UHGV virus genome: UHGV-0182470
DNA: 36,779 bases
From: a virus
Strand: one strand, 5' to 3'
Both the position numbers and the translations under genes were made by a program. Shown piece after piece: positions 13,762 through 35,674 of this stretch. Numbering within the stretch: position 1 is the stretch's first letter; every line of letters starts with the position of its first letter. The notes under the pieces were generated by a model. It was not told the origin of the DNA. It saw nothing but the letters and a program-made list of their open reading frames with translations, and did no database searches.

Positions 13762-13793
13762 TTGACACAAAAGATGTTTATTGACAATATATA
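13762..13793 (+). promoter_or_regulatory. Putative sigma70 promoter of the DUF262 cargo gene
   Basis: TTGACA at 13762-13767 followed ~17-18 bp later by AT-rich -10-like hexamer (CAATAT/AATATA); ATG at 13820 with AAGGAG RBS. Confidence 0.35.
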
Positions 13794-13819
13794 AATTCAA
13801 TCTAACAAGGAGAAAAATT

Positions 13820-15595
13820 ATGCCAAATGAAAATCTTGATATTGACTCAAGGACTACCGAGCAATTATACGAATGGTATTTGCAAGGAAATTTGATAGTC
13901 AATAGACGTTATCAAAGGAAACTTGTATGGTCTCTAGAAGAAAAGACTTCTTTAATATCTTCTATGCTGCAACAATATCCTATTCCGTTATTATTATTTG
14001 TTACCATCAATGAACAAAGAGAAATATTGGATGGAATGCAAAGATTAGAAGCAATTATGAGCTTCATCGAACAGAGATTTTCATTAGATGGACAATATTT
14101 TGATTTGGACTCTATAGCTTTAACAAAACAACTTAAAGATAATGGAACTTTAATTCAGAAAGAACCAATCCTTTCCCGTGATTCTTCAGCAATTATTGCA
14201 CGTTATCGATTTGCAATATCAGAATATAGCTCCACAAATGAAAATATTGACGAAGTATTCAGACGAATAAACTCAAACGGGAAGATTTTATCCAAACAAG
14301 AATTACGTAGTGCAGGAACAGTTAGTAACTTCTCTGAACTGGTCAGATCGATATCAACATCGATCAGAGGTGATACTAGCCATTCTGACATTATGAATCT
14401 CCAGCAAATGCACAAAATTTCAATCAGTAACGATAGATTGGAGTACGGGGTAAATATCGATAACCACTTTTATATAAAACATCATATTTTAACAAGACGA
14501 AGTATTCGTGATTCTGATGACGAGGAATTGATAGCCAATATCCTTGCATATATCAGTCTAGAAGAAAAACCCACATCTGGGTCAACTTCTCTCGACACAT
14601 TCTATGGTCAAGGAAACTCCTCTCATGCTCATGGTGTCAGACAGCAATTAGAGTCTTTCATTCAAACCAATAACGCTGCCACTATTAAGCAGAATTTCAT
14701 AGCTGTATATGAATTAATTACAAGCCTATATGACGGAAAAAATGATACTTTTAGAAGCCATATTTTAGGGGAGGATAATTCATCTCAAGAATGCCCTCGT
14801 TATTATCAAGCTGTGTTTTTGTCTATTTATGAACTTCTTTTCAACCAAAATATGCAATTAATTGATAAAGAAGGTTTATTCTCGCAATTAAAAAACACTG
14901 GCAATACCATAATTATGGTTACCGATGGTGGCCGCTGGGCTGCAAGCACTCGTGAAAAAAGTGTTAATGATCTTGTTGCATTAATAAGTCGCTACTTCCA
15001 ACCTGCTCCTCAAAAGTATGTGAATCATGCTTGGGTAACTGAAATTCGCAATCTATTAACAAATTCTAGAACTGAACAACCAAGTTATGATTTCAAACAG
15101 GGGTTCTTTAATTTATCAGGTAAAAATGAATTTGATGATGAATGTTTAAAAGGAATATTACAAACTTGCGTAGCAATAAATAATATTGGAAAAAGCGCAA
15201 AAGGCTATATTTTAGTTGGTATTGCCGAAAATAAATTAACCGCAGATAGAATTCAACATTTATATGGAGTAAATTCAATTGAGTTCAATGGGTTCTATAT
15301 AAACGGAATTGATCATGAAGCAATGTTAGTCTCTGGTAGCATTGATGGTTACTTTATGTTAATAAAACAAAAAATACAAGGATACAATTTCACTGAAACT
15401 CTAAAACAGCAGATACTTAAGAATATTGAGTTTTGCTCTTACAATGGCTTACACATACTCAAGATAACTATTCAGAGCACAGGTCAAATTTGCGACTTTG
15501 AGAATATGTTTTATATCAGACAAGGCTCATCGACTGATCCAGTTACGGATACACAAAAAATCTCAGCCCTATTTAACTCTTACATGAACAGCTAA
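13820..15595 (+). CDS. DUF262 (ParB/GmrS-like N-terminal domain) protein, candidate defence cargo gene
   Basis: 591 aa from ATG 13820 (AAGGAG RBS; ORF track start 13781 is upstream in frame); N-terminal region ...RRYQRKLVWS...ILDGMQRLEAI matches the DGQQR signature region of DUF262; visibly AT-rich relative to flanking phage genes; opposite strand to S and V. Confidence 0.7.
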   Translation: MPNENLDIDSRTTEQLYEWYLQGNLIVNRRYQRKLVWSLEEKTSLISSMLQQYPIPLLLFVTINEQREILDGMQRLEAIMSFIEQRFSLDGQYFDLDSIALTKQLKDNGTLIQKEPILSRDSSAIIARYRFAISEYSSTNENIDEVFRRINSNGKILSKQELRSAGTVSNFSELVRSISTSIRGDTSHSDIMNLQQMHKISISNDRLEYGVNIDNHFYIKHHILTRRSIRDSDDEELIANILAYISLEEKPTSGSTSLDTFYGQGNSSHAHGVRQQLESFIQTNNAATIKQNFIAVYELITSLYDGKNDTFRSHILGEDNSSQECPRYYQAVFLSIYELLFNQNMQLIDKEGLFSQLKNTGNTIIMVTDGGRWAASTREKSVNDLVALISRYFQPAPQKYVNHAWVTEIRNLLTNSRTEQPSYDFKQGFFNLSGKNEFDDECLKGILQTCVAINNIGKSAKGYILVGIAENKLTADRIQHLYGVNSIEFNGFYINGIDHEAMLVSGSIDGYFMLIKQKIQGYNFTETLKQQILKNIEFCSYNGLHILKITIQSTGQICDFENMFYIRQGSSTDPVTDTQKISALFNSYMNS

Positions 15596-23011: not shown

Positions 23012-24039
23012 TGGGAAAGAGTAAGAAAAACCGCGCTGCGGCGACGAAACAGCTCCAGCTTAAAAACCAGACTACAGCCGAAGCATTCAGCTTCGGCGAT
23101 CCCGTTCCTGTTCTGGACCGCCGAGAACTGCTGGACTATGTGGAATGCGTACAGATGGACCGTTGGTATGAGCCGCCCGTCAGCTTTGACGGACTGGCGC
23201 GCACCTTCCGCGCTGCCGTGCATCACAGTTCCCCGATTGCAGTAAAGTGCAACATTCTGACCAGTACCTATATCCCTCATCCGCTGCTCAGCCAGCAGGC
23301 TTTTTCGCGTTTTGTGCAGGACTATCTGGTATTTGGTAACGCCTACCTGGAGAAACGCACGAACCGATTCGGTGAAGTTATCGCTCTTGAGCCTGCGCTG
23401 GCAAAATACACCCGACGCGGATTAGACCTGGATACCTACTGGTTTGTGCAATACGGTATGACAACCCAGCCGTATCAGTTCACGAAAGGCAGCATTTTTC
23501 ATCTGATGGAACCGGATATTAATCAGGAGATCTACGGCCTGCCCGGTTATCTTTCTGCCATTCCGTCAGCCCTGCTCAACGAGTCCGCCACGCTGTTCCG
23601 CCGGAAGTATTACATTAACGGTAGTCATGCAGGCTTCATCATGTACATGACCGATGCCGCGCAGAACCAGGAGGATGTGAACAACCTCCGCAACGCGATG
23701 AAAAGTGCCAAAGGTCCGGGTAACTTCCGCAACCTGTTTATGTACTCGCCTAACGGCAAAAAAGACGGGCTTCAGATTATCCCGCTATCAGAAGTCGCAG
23801 CGAAGGATGAATTTCTTAACATCAAGAACGTGAGTCGGGATGACATGATGGCAGCGCATCGTGTGCCACCACAAATGATGGGGATAATGCCTAGCAATGT
23901 TGGGGGGTTTGGGGATGTGGAGAAGGCGGCAAATGTGTTTGTGCGAAATGAATTATTACCGTTGCAAAAAAGGATGCGTGAAGTAAATGACTGGTTAGAA
24001 CAAAAAATTTTGCGATTTGAGCCATATTCTTTGGGATGA
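23008..24039 (+). CDS. Q: Portal protein Q
   Basis: 343-aa ORF coupled to P (ATGA overlap). Confidence 0.9.
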   Translation: MMGKSKKNRAAATKQLQLKNQTTAEAFSFGDPVPVLDRRELLDYVECVQMDRWYEPPVSFDGLARTFRAAVHHSSPIAVKCNILTSTYIPHPLLSQQAFSRFVQDYLVFGNAYLEKRTNRFGEVIALEPALAKYTRRGLDLDTYWFVQYGMTTQPYQFTKGSIFHLMEPDINQEIYGLPGYLSAIPSALLNESATLFRRKYYINGSHAGFIMYMTDAAQNQEDVNNLRNAMKSAKGPGNFRNLFMYSPNGKKDGLQIIPLSEVAAKDEFLNIKNVSRDDMMAAHRVPPQMMGIMPSNVGGFGDVEKAANVFVRNELLPLQKRMREVNDWLEQKILRFEPYSLG

Positions 24040-24096
24040 TTTCTCTTGTAAATCAACATGCTTTGCTGTTCGATAGAACAAACCAAAATTTGATTA

Positions 24097-24557
24097 GTGG
24101 GAAAAGTTCATGGTACAGCAAGTATGGTTTTTTTTAAGGCAATTGAGAAAGACGATCTTAGATACTGGGGAAATGATAGTTATCCCGATGACTCATCAGT
24201 TTTCTATCGCTATGACAGTTTTGTAGCGAATCACAAAAATGTAAAAGACGGTGATATTATTATTATTACCAACAGAGAAAATATTTTAGGTATATCTGTT
24301 ATTGAAAAATTAGAAACACAGAGCATTAATAAGAAGCGTAACAAATGTATTAACCTAGACTGCAAAGCAAAAAAATTCTTCAAAGGAAAACTATAAAATC
24401 AGAGTGGCGTTGTGATAATGGCCATGAATTTGATGAACCCAGAGTGGTTTTTGAGCCAGCTAAAGAATTTATAGCATACTGCGGCAACCAGTACCGTAAA
24501 TTATCCAATATTACAATGTCACAACTTATAGATGAAACTCCACGCTACAATGGGTAA
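24097..24557 (+). pseudogene. Zinc-ribbon-containing ORF split by a frameshift in an A7 tract (24097-24396 in frame 0, continuing to 24557 in frame +2)
   Basis: Frame-0 ORF ends ...KCINLDCKAKKFFKGKL; the same region in frame +2 reads ...KKILQRKTIKSEWRCDNGHEFDEP...YCGNQY... One extra A in the A7 run at ~24370-24376 would join them into one ~153-aa protein with a Cys/His zinc-ribbon-like pattern. Confidence 0.45.
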
Positions 24558-25070
24558 ATGTCCATCCAAGAAGTTAACTATCAATGGGCTGTTGCTTTGC
24601 TTACCGCCCAACATACTATTATTCTGGAGCTCAACGCCAGCGAAGCTGATAAAGACACCCCCACTTTAATGGGTGAAGATCAACGGCAAATTGTAGAACG
24701 GCAAATAAAACAACGAAGTGGGCAAAAAACATTTCGCGACCAGCTATTAAAATCAAATCCTACTTGTGCGGTTACGGGCTGTAAGCTTGTTGATATTCTT
24801 GATGCTGCTCACATTAATGTATATCGAAACGATAGTCACAATCATATTAGCAATGGATTATTGCTCAGAAGTGACATTCATACTTTATATGACCTAAATC
24901 TTTGTGCTATAAACCCGATAACAAAAACCATTCATTTTTCAGTGGAAGCCTTGGAAAATGGATATTCGAAATTCGAAGGTTTAAAAATAAATACCCAACA
25001 CAACATAGCAATAAAACCACTATTAACAAGATGGCAGTTATTAAAATCTCAAAACTCTATTGATATATAA
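24558..25070 (+). CDS. HNH endonuclease-domain protein
   Basis: 170 aa; motifs RSGQKTFRDQLL...CAVTGC...LDAAHI...NGLLLRSDIHTLYD fit the HNH (restriction-type) signature; ATG abuts the TAA of the upstream ORF (TAAATG); AT-rich. Confidence 0.7.
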   Translation: MSIQEVNYQWAVALLTAQHTIILELNASEADKDTPTLMGEDQRQIVERQIKQRSGQKTFRDQLLKSNPTCAVTGCKLVDILDAAHINVYRNDSHNHISNGLLLRSDIHTLYDLNLCAINPITKTIHFSVEALENGYSKFEGLKINTQHNIAIKPLLTRWQLLKSQNSIDI

Positions 25071-25085
25071 TAAATAGCGACAACC

Positions 25086-25117
25086 GAAGGGAGCGTTTAT
25101 AATTAAAAGCTCCCTTT
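25086..25117. terminator. Bidirectional hairpin terminator between convergent cargo genes
   Basis: GAAGGGAGC ... GCTCCCTTT stem flanked by A/T-rich sequence. Confidence 0.5.
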
Positions 25118-25126
25118 AGCAGGAAA

Positions 25127-26155
25127 TTAGAGCACTAGGGGATCAGTGACCCATGCTTTATTATGGTTTTCTCGATAACAATCATAAATTAATAAATCCG
25201 TTCTTGTATCCGGTGGAAGTTCAATTTCAGGAATGTAATAACTTGCTGGATTGCTATTATCTAATGAAATTGAAAAGTTTTGATTAACGATCGTTGATAG
25301 AGACGTATTGGCTTCCAATAAGCTAAACGGGCCATATTTTACACAGTACATTACAACACAAGCAGCAACTGCATCCATTACATTTTCTAAAGTGGAAAAG
25401 TGGAATGCTCCTGATCTATCATGTTTAGTTTTATTATATGCATTATACCATGACAAAGATGTTGTAGGGGTACTTGCATTCCACCCATCAAAAGGTTTGA
25501 AATGCCTTAATCCGTCATAATTCAAATATTGAATTTTATATTCAGACAAATAACACTTATCTAATAATTTCACATAATCATTTGTGGAGTATCGACCATT
25601 TGAACGAGATAAATTCGAATTACCAATGATTGACACCCATTGATTTTCAACCTCAGTACAAGCAAGAATTAATAGCTCTCTACATTTATGACTGTAAGAA
25701 ATCAAACCATGGGCACTTGGTTCTACATATAGAAAAATATCATCGAGTTTTTCTATCAAAACTCTTAGAGCTTGCTCTGTTGCTCTTTTTTCAAACTCAT
25801 CGATACCTAATGCTGTTTCTGTATCATTGACATAATATAAGGATGGCCGCCACACTCCCCTAGTTACATGTCCAATTTCATTATCTAAAGGAGATATGTT
25901 CTGAGCCCCAAATACTCTCCGAACCCAATCATTGAGAGTTCCACTTCGTTGCTCAATAACAGTTAACCCAACTGATATTACATTAAATCCCACGTCACGC
26001 CCATACAGATGCACAAAATGACTTGTTGTTTCATAAGCGTAACCGAATTTGTGCTTTTGATGTACTGTTGTTTCAAAATTAGGAATGCGTGTATGAGTGT
26101 TTTCGTACCAGATTCCGTTCATCATCACCTCTAATGAGAGTCGATTATATTTCAA
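25127..26155 (-). CDS. Hypothetical 342-aa AT-rich cargo protein
   Basis: Long uninterrupted ORF on the minus strand in an AT-rich island between Q and the putative cos site; no confident family assignment (contains an RSGAFH, i.e. R-x4-H, motif). Confidence 0.6.
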   Translation of the reverse strand: MKYNRLSLEVMMNGIWYENTHTRIPNFETTVHQKHKFGYAYETTSHFVHLYGRDVGFNVISVGLTVIEQRSGTLNDWVRRVFGAQNISPLDNEIGHVTRGVWRPSLYYVNDTETALGIDEFEKRATEQALRVLIEKLDDIFLYVEPSAHGLISYSHKCRELLILACTEVENQWVSIIGNSNLSRSNGRYSTNDYVKLLDKCYLSEYKIQYLNYDGLRHFKPFDGWNASTPTTSLSWYNAYNKTKHDRSGAFHFSTLENVMDAVAACVVMYCVKYGPFSLLEANTSLSTIVNQNFSISLDNSNPASYYIPEIELPPDTRTDLLIYDCYRENHNKAWVTDPLVL

Positions 26156-26233
26156 TGGATTATATGGATGATACTACACTAAGTTGTACCTATGACAGAT
26201 ACTATTTTAGCCACTTCAGGCATACAGCGCGCG

Positions 26234-26252
26234 CTCGTATCCCCGCCACGCC
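26234..26252. other. Putative cos cohesive-end site (P2/186-like)
   Basis: Reverse complement reads GGCGTGGCGGGGATACGAG; first 13 nt match the 186 cos sequence GGCGTGGCGGGGA as I recall it; GC-rich island in AT-rich surroundings. Confidence 0.4.
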
Positions 26253-26583
26253 TGCTCGCTTTATGTAGTGGTTTTCATGCACCTGCATGACATGAGTAAA
26301 AGCCCGCCAGTTCTGGCAGGTGTCTGCAAAAACGATCCTCAATCGATCATGCGATTTCATGCAGCATAGTCATGCACTGCCAAGGGAAGCGTTAATCCGT
26401 ATCTGATAACCGCTTGAAAAACGAAACATACTGGTTTACAACAATAAAAATCCGCTGTGAGCGAAGAGCAGAAGTTACAGCATAAAAAGCAATATGGTTG
26501 TGTACCATAGAGCTAAACATTTAAACAAGTTATGTGCTGTATCGATATACTGTGACTCAATATCTAAAACATGGAGGGTGAAT

Positions 26584-27057
26584 ATGTCTTCTTCTACATC
26601 ACAACTACAGCATGTTACAACATCGACAACAGTAAACTCGTCAAGTTACTCCCCCGTCAAATTGCAAGATCATGAAGCAGCATCGAATTCTGGACCTGGT
26701 GGACATACAATTAGAAGACATGTTGGCAAGGATGCCAATTACCTGATAGATCGATTAGATCGATTTCCTAAACTCTGTGTAGCTTCAACATTTACAAACT
26801 TATCAGTAGCAGAACTATCAGCTACCGAGTGGTTCAATTCATTTCTTATGGAATTTACAGAGTGGTATAAAGATCCTAATCGCACAGAGGTTAGATTTTC
26901 AAAGGAATTAGACATTGAACAGGATGTAGGCACTTACGTTAAACGCGATAATCCAAACAATATATTGACTGCAAAAAGAATTAATTTAGTCATGAAAATT
27001 GAAAAGTTTAACGGAATGCCTCATTTCATCCTCACTGCATATCCTGTTAAGGGGTGA
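26584..27057 (+). CDS. Hypothetical protein, toxin-like (Ser/Thr-rich N-terminal linker + compact C-terminal domain)
   Basis: ATG 26584 with GGAGGG RBS (track ORF starts upstream at 26494); 158 aa; motif GGHTIRRHVGK; translationally coupled to the next gene. Confidence 0.6.
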   Translation: MSSSTSQLQHVTTSTTVNSSSYSPVKLQDHEAASNSGPGGHTIRRHVGKDANYLIDRLDRFPKLCVASTFTNLSVAELSATEWFNSFLMEFTEWYKDPNRTEVRFSKELDIEQDVGTYVKRDNPNNILTAKRINLVMKIEKFNGMPHFILTAYPVKG

Positions 27058-27061
27058 TAAT

Positions 27062-27721
27062 ATGTCAAAAGAATATACTAAACTAGATAATTTTATACGG
27101 TCCTACTTCAATCAAGATACCGTATGCGAACTTGAGTCAGATGATCTTGGAAAGATTATTGATTTATATCTTTCTGATGTTGGTCAGAATGGCGTAAAAG
27201 AACTTCTAATTGATATTTCAAAGTTTATTAATGATAATAAAAATCAAAGCCTTGATAAATATTTTGAGAATAAGTTCAGCTCTTATCTTGACATAACTCC
27301 AGTTGAAAAATTCATCTCACTCTTGAATTCAAAATATCTCGAAAAATATCCTGAGATAAAATCCACTGCCGTGAAACATTTTGTATTTTCTACTACACCA
27401 AAGAGAACACAGCATAAACCAAGAATAATTAAAAGATTTCCTTCAATGGTTCCAGCACTTAGTTTTGAGTTTTCATCAGAACGAATCGCTGATTCCAATG
27501 CTTTGTTTCGAGGAAAAGTTTTTAAGCGTAACAACATTAAGCGCGGAGCCAGAAAACCATATTATATACTGGTAAACATCAAACCAAAACAAGAGGCGGC
27601 TATAAAGGTTTCTTTATCTAAGAGTAAGAGTCGTCAACGTCTTTACGATTCACTTAAAAAATCCATTGAAGCTACAGATATTGTTTTGCAAAATAATAAA
27701 GTCGAAAAAATGAAATCATAA
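27062..27721 (+). CDS. Hypothetical protein, immunity/partner-like, basic C-terminus
   Basis: ATG 27062 with AAGGGG RBS, 4 nt after stop of upstream gene; 220 aa; Lys/Arg-rich C-terminal third. Confidence 0.6.
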   Translation: MSKEYTKLDNFIRSYFNQDTVCELESDDLGKIIDLYLSDVGQNGVKELLIDISKFINDNKNQSLDKYFENKFSSYLDITPVEKFISLLNSKYLEKYPEIKSTAVKHFVFSTTPKRTQHKPRIIKRFPSMVPALSFEFSSERIADSNALFRGKVFKRNNIKRGARKPYYILVNIKPKQEAAIKVSLSKSKSRQRLYDSLKKSIEATDIVLQNNKVEKMKS

Positions 27722-27730
27722 CGTGAAGAA

Positions 27731-27757
27731 AATAGCCACTCCTAGTGGCTATCTTTA
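27731..27757 (+). terminator. Rho-independent terminator after the two-gene module
   Basis: ATAGCCACT / AGTGGCTAT perfect 9-bp stem, 3-nt loop, followed by CTTTAATT. Confidence 0.6.
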
Positions 27758-27941
27758 ATTGTTATCCCAAAACCATCTCCTAGGGAGGTGGTGATTGATT
27801 TATAAGATAGTTAAAACCAAAAACATTTGACAGTAGTAAAGAGAAAGTTGCGTCCATCAGTTGAAGTCAAAGCATAAAGCGGACGATCACTTATCAAAAT
27901 GGCCGCCCACCTAACTCCTCGTTTCACTCGTGCTAAAACTA

Positions 27942-27971
27942 GCCCCCATCAGAATAAATCCTCCTGGGGGC
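27942..27971 (-). terminator. Rho-independent terminator after dinI-like gene
   Basis: GCCCCC...GGGGGC hairpin immediately downstream (minus strand) of the stop at 27980, followed by a U-rich tract on the minus strand. Confidence 0.5.
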
Positions 27972-27979
27972 AACGTTTC

Positions 27980-28210
27980 TTAATGCAGCCAGCTGTCGTC
28001 TTCCCACACCTTCTGCATAATTTTCATCACTTGTTTTCTTTCTTCGTCCAGTTGCAGTCCGGTCAGTTCCACACCGTTAGAGCTACCTTTGCGGATACGA
28101 ATTACCGTTTTGGGATACAGGGGGCGCAGATTGCGGTAAAGCTCGGATTCAAGGGCGTCCAGTGTAGACTGGCTAACCTTCTGCTCTTTATCGATCATTA
28201 TTTCAATGCG
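27980..28210 (-). CDS. dinI: DinI-family protein (ORF track extends to 28285; start at MRIEIMI)
   Basis: MRIEIMIDKEQKVSQSTLDALESELYRNLRPLYPKTVIRIRKGSSNGVELTG...KIMQKVWEDDSW aligns along its length with E. coli DinI as I recall it. Confidence 0.8.
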   Translation of the reverse strand, partial: RIEIMIDKEQKVSQSTLDALESELYRNLRPLYPKTVIRIRKGSSNGVELTGLQLDEERKQVMKIMQKVWEDDSWLH

Positions 28211-28223
28211 CATAAAAGTCACC

Positions 28224-28412
28224 TCAGCTGATGACATCCATTGAGCGGTTGTATTCGTGGGTTCTGATTTTTGCCATAAGTTCATCTGTCAGTTCAGAAA
28301 CCCACTGCAGGGCCAGCCCCTTCTCTTCATCACTACACTCACTAGCCGCTACAAGCTTAAGAAAAAAATCAATGCGCTGGAGCTTCAAAGACTCCAAAAA
28401 ATAGTCCTGCAT
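28224..28412 (-). CDS. Small acidic hypothetical protein, first gene of LexA-boxed operon (Tum-like antirepressor candidate)
   Basis: 62-aa ORF immediately downstream of a LexA box and upstream of the dinI-like gene; functional assignment is inference only. Confidence 0.4.
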   Translation of the reverse strand: MQDYFLESLKLQRIDFFLKLVAASECSDEEKGLALQWVSELTDELMAKIRTHEYNRSMDVIS

Positions 28413-28454
28413 CTTTCCTCCTATGACACCAAAGCAATACTGTATATATAACCA

Positions 28455-28470
28455 CTGTTTATATTTACAG
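28455..28470. promoter_or_regulatory. LexA (SOS) box
   Basis: CTGTTTATATTTACAG is a perfect CTGT-N8-ACAG palindrome with AT-rich spacer; a second half-site-like CTGTATATATAACCAC lies just upstream. Confidence 0.65.
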
Positions 28471-28564
28471 TATATAATAATCTTACTGATGTAAAACGTT
28501 TTTTTATGCTCATCAGCCTGATATGCCTGGTATTATTAAGAGCACGAATTGTTAACCCGCGTAA

Positions 28565-30979
28565 TTAATACAGGTTTCGCCACTTATCATCTTCCTGCAA
28601 ACGCTGGTTCCGATAGAAGATACGCAGGCCTGCTCCTGATGGAATACTGCCGCCGCGAAGCAGTAAATCGACCTCTTTCTCGCTGCCATCAAATCCCCTG
28701 GACTTCAGTTCATACACGAGCTGCTGTCGCTGATGATCTGTAATTCGCTGTTTGTAGTCTTTACGCCGTTTCGGTTTCACAAGGCGTAACCTTGCTGCCA
28801 GTTCCCGGCGCTCTTTTTTGCTCATACTGTGCAGGTAATCGTGCAACTCCTTGTCATCCATGCGGGTGATATCCGTTCTGGTATCTCCATCAGCTGATTT
28901 GTCTTTCCCTTGTTGGTACAAATTTTCAGCAAGGGGACAGTTATTGCCACGAGTCCAAGGGGCGCAAGCGCCCTGGTCGGCTGCCGCCTCCTGAATGTCA
29001 ACGGCCTTACGAACCATTTTCCACTTCACGGCATGAGTGCAGATCTTGCCCTCTGCAATAGGTGACCAGATGCCATAAATACGAATGCCGTGATCGCCAT
29101 AGGCGGTCGGCTCTTCGTTGATTTCATAAGCAGTTCTGATGAGGTGATATTTGCGGGGAACCAGTACGCCGCCCTGCTTCATGATGTAGGTGGCAAAACA
29201 ACCAGCATCAGCAGCAGCCAGGATTGCATCAAGGCGCGGGTTATCCAGTACCGGCGCACCTGCTTTTTTGTCCCCCTGTTGCCTTGCCGCCTGACCAGCC
29301 AGCAATCGCAGTTCACGGTAAGCCTGACGCCCCGGAATGCCAAAGAAGCGGAATTGCTGAACACGATGCAGAGACGCCCAGGCATTAACGTATTCAGCAT
29401 TATCACGCAGGGATTTCCCCGTTTCCTTGCTGATCTCGCCAGCCAGACCACGCCCGTCAATGTTCTTACTGATGTATTTCGCGATGTAGCTTGTTGGCGT
29501 ACCTTTGCGCGGGTTAATCAACTCAGACTTAAAGCGCGGTCCAGTGTTATTGCCCAGCTCCTCGCGGTCTTCACGGATGGCAAACTTACGCAGTAATGCA
29601 GTGATGGCGCGGCGGTCTTTTTTGCGCATAAAACACAACAGGTGCCAGTGAACTGTACCGTCATGATGCGGCTCAGCCACCCGCACGCCATACCAGCGCA
29701 ATCCGGCTTTGTGCATCGCCTTACGAAATGCAGCAAACATGCCGACCAGATAATCACTACTTTGTCTTACCGTCGCATTTGTCCAGGTTGGGTTGGGCCT
29801 GCCGTTATTTAGCGTGGAATGGAAACGTGACGGACAGGTGATGGTGTAGAAAACGGCGCAGTCACCGCGCATTTCCGCGATAAGCTCCAGACCTTTAACA
29901 CAGGCCATCATCTCATTGCGGCGATGCGCAGGGTTGCTGCTGCTGGCGTTTACCACATCCTCCATGTCCAGCGTGTCGCCGTCTTCGTTCACCAGTTCAT
30001 GAGAACGGAAAAACTCCAGCGACTTACGGCGCTGCTCACGTTTATGCATCACGGCTTCATAGCTGACATAAGGAGATGCTTTTTTGCTAACCAGGCAGAC
30101 AGCGCGCAACTGCTCTTCCCGCCATTCGCAACGCATCTTCCATAATTTCCGATACCACCAGTCAGCGCACAACATACGCGCCAGCGAACCCGGAATGAGT
30201 TCATAGGGCACGGGTTTACGGCGGTTTCTTTTCCGGCGGAGTTGCTCAAACGCAGGCGGGATGACATCCAGACGCAGGGTTTCCGCTGCCACCTTTTCCC
30301 ATGTATTGCGGATTTCTTCTGGCTTAACGTCATCGGTGACATACAAATCGCCACAAGCTGCATCAAGGCACATGCTCATATGCGCAGCGACAAGGGTAGA
30401 CAAGCGTTTCACCTGATCCTGACTCATTTCAGGCAGGATCAGCAGGCCGTCCAGCCCTTCATGGCTTGCCATAAAGCGAAAAGAAGTGGATAGCTGACTG
30501 TCGCGTACATGCTCCAGTCGTTCCAGACATGGCTTAATCGTCTCACGCAAATAGCGGGAATAAGCCTTTGGCCTGCCCAGGCTGCTGAAGTATTCAATAC
30601 GTTGCATCAGCGGCTTGCTGATATGGGAAGGCTGGGCATTGACGTCCGCCAGAATGACCATGTCCGGGTTAAAACGCTGCTGCTCATGCGCCAGCTTTGC
30701 CCGACTAATGAGCTTATCCTGCTCCATTTCGCGCTGGACAGGATCACGGGATTCATTAAAGAAATAACGCTCCCAGACCTGATCACTCAGCGCCTCACGG
30801 CGCAGCTGTTCCTGCTCGTTATCGGCAGCGTACAGAGTGATCAGATTTGAAAGCGCAGAAACCGGCGCAACTTCCGCCGGGTCCAGATAAGGGTTAATGG
30901 CCTTTTTCGGGCTGTTCCATGAGAATGCTGCGGCGACCTCGTTAAAGCCGCTGCAGTTGTTCATATCAGCATGGCTCAT
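28565..30979 (-). CDS. A: Replication initiation endonuclease A (rolling-circle type)
   Basis: 804-aa ORF; size, position and sequence character match P2/186 gpA. Confidence 0.85.
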
Positions 30980-31833
30980 GCACGCACTCCGTACACGGCA
31001 GAACTATCCACGCCACGCGAAGGATCAAATCCCACCCAGCAGCGCGGCCCGGAAACAGCGATGATTTCTGTTGCTGATTTACCCTCGCCAGCTGCCACAC
31101 CGATGCTGCGTTTTACCTTGATATAGTGGTGAGTAAAATTGCGATACAGCGAACGAATCAGGGATGTGTCACTGTTAGAAACAATGACCGGATGTCCTTC
31201 AGATGATCGATGTTCAAGAACGGATGCCAGGTGATACTGGTCATCTTCAGTGAAACCATCAGTGTGATAGCCGGAAAACGTACCGTCATACGGCGGATCG
31301 CAATACACCACATCCCCCGCCTTCAACATCGCCAGCGTTTCATCAAAGCTGGTGCAGATAAACGTTGCCCGCTGGGCTTTTTCTGCAAATGCGCGAATTT
31401 CTTTTTCAGGGAAATACGGATTTTTATAATTACCGTAGGGAATGTTGAAATGCCCGCTCTTGTTATAGCGACATAAACCACGGTAACCGTGACGATTGAG
31501 ATACAGGAAATATACCGCTTTCATGAAATCAGTAATTTCAGTTGAGTAATTAAACTCCTGCCTTATGTTGTAATAAGCTACCTCCCTGTTTGCGATCTCA
31601 AATAAAACTCTGGCGCGAGATATAAACGATTCACAATCAGCGGCAACCTTTTTATAGAGGTTGATTAAATCAGGATTAATATCCGCAACCAGATAGCTGG
31701 GGTAATCCGTCTCCATCATCACAGCACAAGAACCCGCGAAAGGTTCAACCAGTCGCGGGCCAGCAGGAAGATGTTTTTTCAGTTCGGACATTATGGCAGT
31801 TTTATTTCCCGCCCATTTCAGGATGGTGCTCAT
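30976..31833 (-). CDS. dam: DNA adenine methyltransferase (Dam-like)
   Basis: From internal Met [11 protein letters not shown]...[10 protein letters not shown]...DPPY; motifs I and IV of Dam-type MTases; overlaps A start (ATGA). Confidence 0.85.
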
Positions 31834-32057
31834 ACAGCACCTCCGTTGTAATGTTTGCCTTTCAGCTCTGCGATTTCCTGACAGGTAATGCAAAGCTGCA
31901 CACCCGGAATGGCACGGCGGCGTGCTGGCGGAATTGGCGCTTCACACTCAATGCAAAGCACGCGGGACACGCCCGGCGTTTTGGCACGGGCAGCACGGAT
32001 ATGGCGTTGGCGTTCTTCTTCAACGCGCTGCTGTACGAGATCCATTGCATCAGCCAT
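31830..32057 (-). CDS. TraR/DksA-family C4 zinc-finger protein
   Basis: 75 aa with CIECEAPIP...CITCQ spacing typical of TraR/DksA phage proteins. Confidence 0.7.
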   Translation of the reverse strand: MADAMDLVQQRVEEERQRHIRAARAKTPGVSRVLCIECEAPIPPARRRAIPGVQLCITCQEIAELKGKHYNGGAV

Positions 32058-33905: not shown

Positions 33906-34021
33906 AGTGCAGTATCTCTTAGTTTGGTTTCGTTTTATCTTGTTTTATGTGGTTTGGTTTTGCTTTTCAAACCATGAATGGATATTAAGATCACTTTTTA
34001 TATACGTCAAGAGGTTTGATT
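33906..34021. promoter_or_regulatory. Lysis/lysogeny switch region (divergent/face-to-face promoters and operators)
   Basis: 116-bp intergenic region between apl and cI with repeated GTTTGGTTT elements and an inverted GGTTTG...CAAACC pair. Confidence 0.5.
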
Positions 34022-34654
34022 ATGAGTTTAATCAAAGCGGGAAATGATAGTGGTGGGCGCGATGCAATTAACAGGCTTATTAAGGCTTACAACTTCAGCT
34101 CACGACAGCAGCTCTGCGAACATCTGGAAGTATCCAAAAGCACTATGGCTAACAGATACTTAAGGGATAGCTTTCCTGCCGAATGGGTAATTCAATGTGC
34201 CCTTGAAACAGGAGCTTCCCTTCTATGGCTGGCTACTGGTCAAGGAGATATGTATGCGTGTGAGAACGAAGAAACAAATCTCAAAAATGAACCTCCCGTC
34301 ACTGTAAGACCACTTTCTAAGATCGTTGCTCCTAGCATCAAACGTGTTGAACTGAAGAACGGCGAACTGCAGGCAAGTGATGAAATTCTTCTTGATAGCA
34401 GCCTGCTCGATGGTGACTCATCCAACGCTTTATTTGTTAAAACAGCTAATAATAGCTTTGTAGTGGATACGTCCGTTAAACAAGTCAGTAATGGCTTCTG
34501 GTTAGTCGATATGGACGGAGTTAAAAGCATCGTCAAAATTGCGCGCATACCCGGAAACAAAATAGTAGTTAGCCAAGATGACACTTCATTTGAATGTTCT
34601 GTAGATGATGTGGAAGTCGTAGGACGTGCAGTCAAAGTAATCAAGAACCTCTAA
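34022..34654 (+). CDS. cI: CI immunity repressor (186 type)
   Basis: ATG 34022 with AAGAGG RBS (track start 34016 is a TTG); N-terminal HTH region; immediately upstream of int. Confidence 0.8.
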   Translation: MSLIKAGNDSGGRDAINRLIKAYNFSSRQQLCEHLEVSKSTMANRYLRDSFPAEWVIQCALETGASLLWLATGQGDMYACENEETNLKNEPPVTVRPLSKIVAPSIKRVELKNGELQASDEILLDSSLLDGDSSNALFVKTANNSFVVDTSVKQVSNGFWLVDMDGVKSIVKIARIPGNKIVVSQDDTSFECSVDDVEVVGRAVKVIKNL

Positions 34655-34657
34655 CTT

Positions 34658-35674
34658 ATGACCATCAGAAAACAGCCGAACGGAAAATGGTTGTGTGAGT
34701 GCTATCCCAATGGACGCAATGGTAAGCGCGTGCGTAAGCAATTTGCTACCAAAGGCGAAGCCATTGCATTTGAAAGCTTCACAATGGAAGAAGTGAACAA
34801 AAAACCGTGGTTAGGAGAAAAGGATGATCGGCGACACCTATCAGAATTAATTGAGCTTTGGTATTCCCTGTATGGTCAGACACTCGCAGACCCCAAGCGC
34901 CTCATGGCGAAACTTAGAATTATCTGTAATGGTCTAGGCGACCCCATCGCCTCAGAACTGACAGCCGGTGACTTTACGAAATACCGCGAAGCACGGTTAA
35001 AAGGTGAAGTACGAAATGAAGATGGCACGTTTATGTCGCCCGTTAAGCCCCGCACGGTAAACCTTGAACAGCGCAATCTATCATCTGTTTTTGGTACGCT
35101 GAAAAAGCTGGGCCACTGGTCAGCCCCCAACCCGCTTGCTGGGCTGCCAACATTTAAAATTGCTGAGAGTGAATTGGCGTTCCTGACCCCGGAAGAAATT
35201 AAACGTCTGCTGGATGCCTGCGCCGATTCTCAAAGCTCCAGCCTGCTTTTGATTGCAAAAATATGCCTGGCCACCGGCGCACGCTGGAGCGAAGCCGAAA
35301 ACCTGCAGAGTCATCAGGTATCAAAATACCGTATCACTTATACCAAGACCAAAGGCAAGAAAAACCGAACTGTGCCTATTTCTAAGGATTTATATGAAGA
35401 ACTGCCTAAGAATAGGGGGAAGTTATTCACCCCATGCAGAAAAGCCTTTGAGCGTGCAGTAAAGCGGGCTGGTATCGATCTGCCAGAGGGTCAATGTACT
35501 CACGTTCTGCGTCATACATTCGCTAGCCATTTTATGATGAATGGTGGAAACATATTGGTTTTGCGGGATATCCTAGGACATTCAGATATAAAAATGACCA
35601 TGGTCTATGCACACTTCGCCCCAGACCATTTAGAAGATGCCGTAACTAAAAATCCTTTATTTAATTTGAGGTAA
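34658..35674 (+). CDS. int: Tyrosine integrase
   Basis: 338 aa; C-terminal catalytic region HVLRHTFASHFMMNGG...LGHSDIKMTMVYAH with R..H..R..Y signature. Confidence 0.9.
   Translation: MTIRKQPNGKWLCECYPNGRNGKRVRKQFATKGEAIAFESFTMEEVNKKPWLGEKDDRRHLSELIELWYSLYGQTLADPKRLMAKLRIICNGLGDPIASELTAGDFTKYREARLKGEVRNEDGTFMSPVKPRTVNLEQRNLSSVFGTLKKLGHWSAPNPLAGLPTFKIAESELAFLTPEEIKRLLDACADSQSSSLLLIAKICLATGARWSEAENLQSHQVSKYRITYTKTKGKKNRTVPISKDLYEELPKNRGKLFTPCRKAFERAVKRAGIDLPEGQCTHVLRHTFASHFMMNGGNILVLRDILGHSDIKMTMVYAHFAPDHLEDAVTKNPLFNLR

Follow-up and report, generated by a model that had tools for sequence, protein, structure and literature searches.

Where in this genome does DNA damage connect to prophage induction? 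The question is raised by a two-gene operon on the minus strand of UHGV virus genome UHGV-0182470 (36,779 nt, here called the window), which is separated by 152 intergenic nt from the replication gene A upstream of it (804 aa, 28565-30979). The window is an E. coli prophage, and over a 4.6-kb stretch it is 99.9% identical to ten chromosomes of this species. A preliminary description of the locus had pointed to phage 186, in which SOS induction works through a LexA-repressed antirepressor gene, tum, and had put forward the first gene of the operon, a 62-aa ORF, as a Tum-like antirepressor. We are confident that the locus is tumA-tumB, the operon for SOS induction in a P2-family E. coli prophage of the Fels-2/DuoHS type, with TumA acting against the CI repressor. 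The features discussed below are collected in Table 1.

Table 1. Features of the tumA-tumB locus and of its surroundings (window coordinates)
Feature	Position	Strand	Description
604-aa protein	13781-15595	+	GmrSD_N (1.7e-17) and Schlafen AlbA_2 (5e-6); among the tail genes, on the opposite strand
HNH_2 endonuclease	24558-25070	+	Cargo island
342-aa unknown ORF	25127-26155	-	Cargo island
Free-standing CdiA-CT RNase A-like toxin domain	26494-27057	+	PF18431, 6.6e-20
CdiI_2 immunity protein	to 27721	+	PF18593, 2.1e-9
Terminator-like hairpin	27935..27971	-	GCCCCCA...UGGGGGC stem, then UAGUUUUAG; closes the two-gene operon
tumB	27980..28213	-	77-aa DinI-family protein; C-terminal half of 186 Tum
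Shine-Dalgarno GAGGTG of tumB	28220..28225	-	Direct reading; overlaps the tumA stop TGA (28226..28224)
tumA	28224..28412	-	62-aa acidic protein, predicted helical hairpin; maximal ORF; putative antirepressor half of Tum
Shine-Dalgarno AGGAGG of tumA	28417..28422	-	Direct reading; 4 nt before the ATG at 28412
SOS box 2	28438..28457	-	CAGTGGTTATATATACAGTA; 16/20 against the consensus by direct reading; colicin-type second LexA box
SOS box 1	28453..28472	-	TACTGTAAATATAAACAGTG; first six bases are the proposed -10
Proposed -35 TTTACA of the SOS promoter	28490..28495	-	5/6 against TTGACA; counterpart of 186 p95
D12-class Dam-like adenine methyltransferase	30976-31893	-	Pfam 4e-76; immediately upstream of gene A
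cI	34016..34654	+	186-type immunity repressor, presumed TumA target; Phage_CI_repr 8e-33, Phage_CI_C 2.5e-40

We took as a LexA operator a 20-bp palindrome close to TACTGT(AT)4ACAGTA. A perfect CTGT-N8-ACAG box had been reported upstream of the operon, and indeed the exact core at 28455-28470 is the sole one in the 36.8-kb window, where chance would yield 0.51 occurrences of the core alone. Over its full length the 20-mer CACTGTTTATATTTACAGTA (28453-28472) agrees with the LexA consensus TACTGTATATATATACAGTA at 17 of 20 positions. With up to three mismatches to the consensus allowed, no other LexA box was found in the window, and none of 100 shuffles produced such a match. The "half-site-like element" that had been noticed beside this box turned out to be the second box of a colicin-type double operator. 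Minus-strand positions 28472..28437 read TACTGTAAATATAAACAGTGGTTATATATACAGTAT, which corresponds to two LexA boxes (28472..28453 and 28457..28438) sharing an overlap of 5 nt, the second with an unusual left half, CAGTGG. From the end of the box 1 core to the ATG the distance is 42 nt, in good agreement with the roughly 45 bp given before.

A plasmid search with a 38-nt stretch of the operator returned 1,039 records at 80 to 97% identity, mostly small mobilizable plasmids. In one of these (locus L004, positions 1501-1536) the operator reads TACTGTATATAAAACCAGTGGTTATATATACAGTAT and the colicin K gene follows 42 nt downstream. Boxes 1 and 2 are identical to this colicin K (cka) operator at 33 of 36 positions; the shared 36-nt element has the form TACTGT-N8-ACAGTGGTTAT-N4-ACAGTAT with the same unusual CAGTGG as the left half of box 2. 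As in colicin operators generally, the two LexA boxes overlap by a few bases and the second has a degenerate left half. However, the likeness to cka ends at the operator edges, and the cka promoter (TTGACA-17-TAGGTT) is separate from the boxes and immediately upstream of them, whereas box 1 of the window appears to contain the -10 element. Two LexA dimers occupy the double boxes of colicin genes and hold basal expression very low, with none detectable (PMC2994835). We infer that box 2 would likewise be occupied by a second LexA dimer; such a double operator would mean tighter repression and a higher induction threshold.

Among 83 related loci with near-identical tumA, the -35 hexamer, the spacer and the whole of box 1 are invariant, and in box 2 the outer positions are kept and the central spacer is variable. 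The centre of box 2 (28444-28447) in fact varies more than any other part of the intergenic region, reading ATAT, GTAT, ACAT, GCAT, GCGT, CTAT and others. This variation is perhaps neutral; alternatively, it could adjust LexA affinity and with it the induction threshold. Every divergent TumA locus examined (53 to 94% identity) harbors a strong LexA box 35 to 59 nt upstream of the start. In 186 and at the more divergent TumA loci there is a single strong box; the double operator is specific to the group formed by Fels-2, DuoHS and the window. One locus with identical tumA (L009, IMG/VR UViG 2634166506_000002) has lost box 1 and the promoter region, in place of which it carries unrelated G+C-rich sequence, and the right half of box 2 is all that remains of the operator. 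LexA may no longer control this prophage, or the prophage may no longer be inducible.

A generic sigma-70 promoter scan called no promoter upstream of the operon. We propose one by comparison with 186 p95, annotated as TTCACA-18 nt-TACTGT: in the window, TTTACA (28495..28490) is followed at a spacing of 17 nt by TACTGT (28472..28467). The proposed -10 matches its consensus at just three of six positions, and both hexamers belong to the stretch that is invariant in the 83 loci. Judged by this analogy, the -10 would lie within box 1, and the operator would overlap the promoter.

The product of tumA has a pI of 4.6 and a net charge of -5, as expected from the "acidic ORF" of the preliminary description, and the second gene is as clear a DinI-family member as had been stated. 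Its product matches Pfam DinI (PF06183) over residues 14 to 76 with E = 6.6e-23 and 81.3 bits, against a gathering cutoff of 24.2 bits, and aligns with the structure of E. coli DinI (PDB 1GHH) at E = 3.9e-6. TumB matches E. coli DinI over its whole length and harbors the conserved acidic C-terminal motif WEDDSW; unlike E. coli DinI, it is phage encoded and translated from a site that overlaps the tumA stop. A gap of 10 nt separates the two genes, which do not share a reading frame. We found no positive sign of recoding that would yield a TumA-TumB fusion by readthrough or frameshift, and a stop codon closes the tumB frame immediately before 28285 on the upstream side. A hairpin at 28235..28218, considered as a translational-coupling or attenuator element, was rejected, its fold being no better than that of shuffled sequence (z = -0.31).

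A terminator had also been proposed at the end of the operon. The hairpin found there has a 7-bp G+C-rich stem (27971..27942) followed by UAGUUUUAG, with a folding energy of -22.3 kcal/mol (z = -2.6). A simple terminator scanner missed it (27971..27935) because of its long loop and interrupted T-run. It is a plausible terminator, short of the textbook form.

The identity of the 62-aa protein was less apparent. Searches of the Pfam and PADLOC family libraries with TumA gave nothing, and PHROGs places it in phrog_698, of "unknown function". In RefSeq the product (WP_001154434.1) is a "hypothetical protein", elsewhere it is occasionally a "levan regulatory protein", and the second gene is labeled "DinI-like family protein". 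A search of 1.84 billion representative proteins recovered 66 TumA relatives, mostly of 55 to 75 residues, and an alignment of 31 of them revealed the conserved motif LQRIxLxARLVAxxxCxxxDKELALxWIAELT. The comparison with 186 Tum that had been called for gave no alignment by BLASTP. Alignment of the 31-sequence profile with 186 Tum by hhalign, in turn, matched residues 3 to 44 to residues 3 to 44 with a probability of 94.8% and E = 5.4e-8. Judging from this profile and its 42 columns, TumA is homologous to the N-terminal half of 186 Tum. TumB, for its part, is 40% identical to residues 71 to 145 of the 146-residue 186 Tum. The two genes are therefore the two halves of 186 tum, in support of the antirepressor role proposed for the small ORF.

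In the AF2 model of TumA (pLDDT 86.9), helices 2-23 and 28-61 form a predicted hairpin whose turn holds the conserved Cys26. The only hits of a Foldseek search of the PDB with this model were designed or generic hairpins at E values above 1; a profile search of the PDB with TumA returned nothing, so that no solved relative was found.

The 186 record bears out this model of induction. Directly after gene A it annotates p95, a LexA site and tum, whose "expression [is] repressed by LexA" and which "inhibits CI DNA binding". Internal starts are also annotated, giving DinI-like truncated products that "modulate SOS induction", and the start of tumB falls at the exact place of the 186 internal GTG start, which has its own Shine-Dalgarno sequence, AAGGAGG. 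The SOS operon of 186 (p95-tum-orf97) thus resembles that of the window in its location after gene A, in a LexA box over a TACTGT hexamer (the -10 in 186, the proposed -10 in the window), in a TT(C/T)ACA hexamer (-35 and proposed -35, respectively) located 17 to 18 nt upstream, and in being paired with a 186-type CI. In contrast, 186 Tum is one polypeptide of 146 aa and the window has two separate genes, 186 has one LexA box and the window two overlapping ones, and orf97 is absent from the window, where convergent cargo takes its place.

Much closer relatives are already known. Tum resembles an antirepressor fused to DinI, and Fels-2 and PSP3 carry tum split in two (Lemire et al. 2011, PMC3121763). 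A 661-bp region of the window is 97.8% identical to phage Fels-2, which annotates its counterparts of the two genes as "hypothetical" (STM2728) and as "DinI family; similar to TumB of PsP3" (STM2726.1); a further 55 Peduoviridae records cover at least 88% of this region. With Fels-2, with PSP3 TumA/TumB and with tum of the P2-like prophage DuoHS of E. coli HS, the window shares the split operon, 97 to 98% DNA identity and the same double operator. TumA is identical at 61 of 62 residues to Fels-2 STM2728 and to the DuoHS tum product, the HS locus showing just a few base differences from the window and a single amino acid change (T51S). The operon is the already known tumA/tumB form of the 186 SOS operon, and its genetics have been published for a near-identical allele.

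Indeed, the requirement of the small ORF for induction, listed earlier as a check to be made, has already been shown for this near-identical allele. In the Phollow study, tum of DuoHS was deleted in-frame by fusing start to stop, and this deletion and, separately, lexA(Ind-) each abolished mitomycin C-induced lysis and virion formation (preprint PMC11195241; Nature Microbiology 2025, PMC12055606). The deletion primer, whose two halves are ATAGGAGGAAAGATG and TGAGGTGACTTTTATGCGCATTG, joins start and stop of the 62-aa ORF of the window exactly: the primer matches 28426..28412 and 28226..28204, and of the two stretches searched for in the window, the one that ends at the ATG is found at 28432..28410 (one mismatch) and the one that starts at the TGA at 28226..28204 (exact match). 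Given these genetics, the gene could be annotated tumA, which would close the gap in RefSeq and PHROGs.

The same experiment bears on whether the DinI homologue, alone or jointly with TumA, might be the real inducer, tumA translation being merely needed for tumB expression. Such a reading could draw on the overlap between the tumA stop and the tumB Shine-Dalgarno sequence, on the small hairpin that can form there, and on 186, where both parts reside in one polypeptide. However, that hairpin is no stabler than shuffled sequence, and the DuoHS deletion left the ribosome-binding site of tumB intact and induction was still lost (PMC11195241, PMC12055606). Furthermore, the antirepressor activity of PSP3 reportedly maps to the upstream gene, according to a personal communication of G. 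Christie via Bunny et al. 2002 (second-hand in PMC3121763), and in Gifsy prophages non-polar dinI deletions had no significant effect on induction (PMC3121763). We consider TumB a highly improbable inducer and keep TumA as the antirepressor.

A similar arrangement is found in the Gifsy and Fels-1 prophages. Their antirepressors GfoA, GftA and FsoA are, like TumA, small proteins encoded together with a DinI homologue in one LexA-repressed operon, and the repressor is likewise uncleaved; they act in trans on several prophages (PMC3121763). However, the gene order is reversed (dinI first), the phages are lambdoid and the repressor family is unrelated, and we found no sequence similarity between these antirepressors and TumA.

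Beyond the operon, the window sequence departs from Fels-2 and HS exactly at the terminator hairpin. A low-GC cargo island (24000-27900; 0.32 to 0.42 versus 0.50 to 0.58 in the backbone) lies between the portal gene Q and the tum terminator, where 186, Fels-2 and DuoHS instead have an orf97-like gene after tumB; the window thus has a terminator and a different cargo island where Fels-2 and DuoHS have that gene. In addition to the genes listed in Table 1, the island holds a 99-aa unknown ORF. The 604-aa GmrSD_N/AlbA_2 protein elsewhere in the window probably serves anti-phage defence, as cargo of a P2 hotspot. On the other side of gene A, the methyltransferase gene is also present in Fels-2 and DuoHS, whereas 186 has a PAPS-reductase-like gene there.

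LexA-controlled DinI homologues are common prophage cargo, and here foreign low-GC cargo comes after the operon; tumA-tumB could on these grounds be an SOS-regulated accessory module, damping RecA in DinI-like fashion for the benefit of the host and having no part in the induction of this prophage. Against this, the position after gene A is conserved in 186, Fels-2, DuoHS and about 180 fetched loci, which were collected with single proteins as queries and which, together with the divergent family members, have the LexA-controlled, DinI-linked layout in common. The homology of TumA to Tum by hhalign and the DuoHS genetics also speak against an accessory module, and we find that reading barely credible. 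The tum operon is the only visible route from SOS to derepression in the window.

This leads to the repressor. The CI of the window is 92% identical to that of Fels-2, 40% to that of DuoHS and 32% to that of 186, and no S24 peptidase domain was found in it above the Pfam threshold. With this 186 CI architecture, which lacks the peptidase domain, an antirepressor route is therefore expected. Direct binding of CI by the TumA of the window would fit this route; biochemical CI binding is known for 186 Tum alone.

The pairing of TumA with CI was nevertheless not one to one. In 80 IMG/VR contigs the encoded TumA is 100% identical to that of the window. Gene A in these loci is 95 to 99% identical to the window protein, CII 93 to 100% and TumB 83 to 99%, but CI ranges from 34 to 99% and falls into 17 clusters at 70% identity. 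The CI of DuoHS, a prophage in which this type of TumA has been shown to function, likewise shares just 40% of its residues with the CI of the window. 186-type Tum proteins (85 to 99% identical) are similarly paired with CI proteins 41 to 97% identical to 186 CI. Since an identical TumA stands beside such different repressors, TumA is not immunity-specific and, if it acts by binding CI, must recognise something conserved. These loci (L009-L088) have identical TumA and an early region of 93 to 99% identity, and relative to window positions 34016-35674 their CI and integrase (53 to 97%) have been swapped mosaically.

This pattern is awkward for lock-and-key binding of CI, and one invariant protein serving many immunity types would be explained if TumA induced the prophage without binding CI, acting instead on a conserved partner such as CII, Apl or a host factor. 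The DuoHS papers establish that tum is required for induction, and the binding partner is outside their evidence (PMC11195241, PMC12055606). However, the homologous N-terminal region belongs to a protein, 186 Tum, that is recorded as inhibiting CI DNA binding (Shearwin 1998 as cited in PMC7708051), and CI does offer a conserved surface. Indeed, in the 42 distinct CI sequences paired with the TumA of the window, the N-terminal signature SKST.A.RY.RD.FPA.W.IQCALETG.SL.WL is strongly kept throughout, and in the C-terminal domain only scattered positions are conserved. We therefore regard a partner other than CI as unlikely and retain CI as the presumed target of TumA.

Within CI, N-terminal domains separate the partners of Fels-2-type proteins from those of 186-type proteins better than C-terminal domains do. 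On the other hand, a divergent TumA locus (L104) and a 186-type Tum locus (L170) have CI N-terminal domains that are 90% identical, and conservation in these loci extends to the entire early region, so that shared lineage could explain the N-terminal pattern. Read from sequence conservation, the comparison points to the DNA-binding domain of CI as a candidate TumA target, without making the case for it. In loci L009-L088 the N-terminal HTH domain of CI is far more conserved than the C-terminal oligomerisation domain, which raises the question of how heteroimmunity arises.

Taken together, the operon would work as follows. In the lysogen, LexA would sit on the double overlapping operator, covering the -10 and the transcript start, and keep the operon silent. 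Upon DNA damage, activated RecA would trigger self-cleavage of LexA and the operon would be transcribed. TumA would then bind the 186-type CI and block its binding to the operator, allowing the early lytic promoter to fire and the prophage to be induced. TumB, made from its own ribosome-binding site, would probably tune RecA filament activity; that it acts on RecA filaments as DinI does is presumed by analogy and, given that loss of dinI had no measurable influence on Gifsy induction, is the weakest step of the scheme.

Our additions to the known system are minor refinements, namely the profile-level homology to Tum, the colicin-type double operator and the association of one TumA with many CI types. 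The last of these suggests a tentative proposal, which we hold to be possible rather than probable: the invariant TumA could be a broad-spectrum antirepressor that recognises a conserved patch of the CI N terminus (around RD.FPA.W.IQCALETG) and cross-induces heteroimmune relatives, with the threshold set by the double operator and its varying box 2. Neither a broad-spectrum TumA nor a threshold set by box 2 was found in the accessible literature.

Through this operon, DNA damage, also that caused by antibiotics, can induce the prophage, so that the operon governs phage release and gene transfer. This concerns a sizeable part of the species, since 1,263 of 5,426 complete E. coli genomes (about a quarter) match the surrounding 4.6-kb region, most of them over part of it. 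The occurrence of one TumA with many CI types furthermore makes a testable prediction, cross-induction between co-resident P2-like prophages: if TumA is indeed broad-spectrum, SOS induction of one Fels-2-like prophage would cross-induce its heteroimmune relatives in the same cell.
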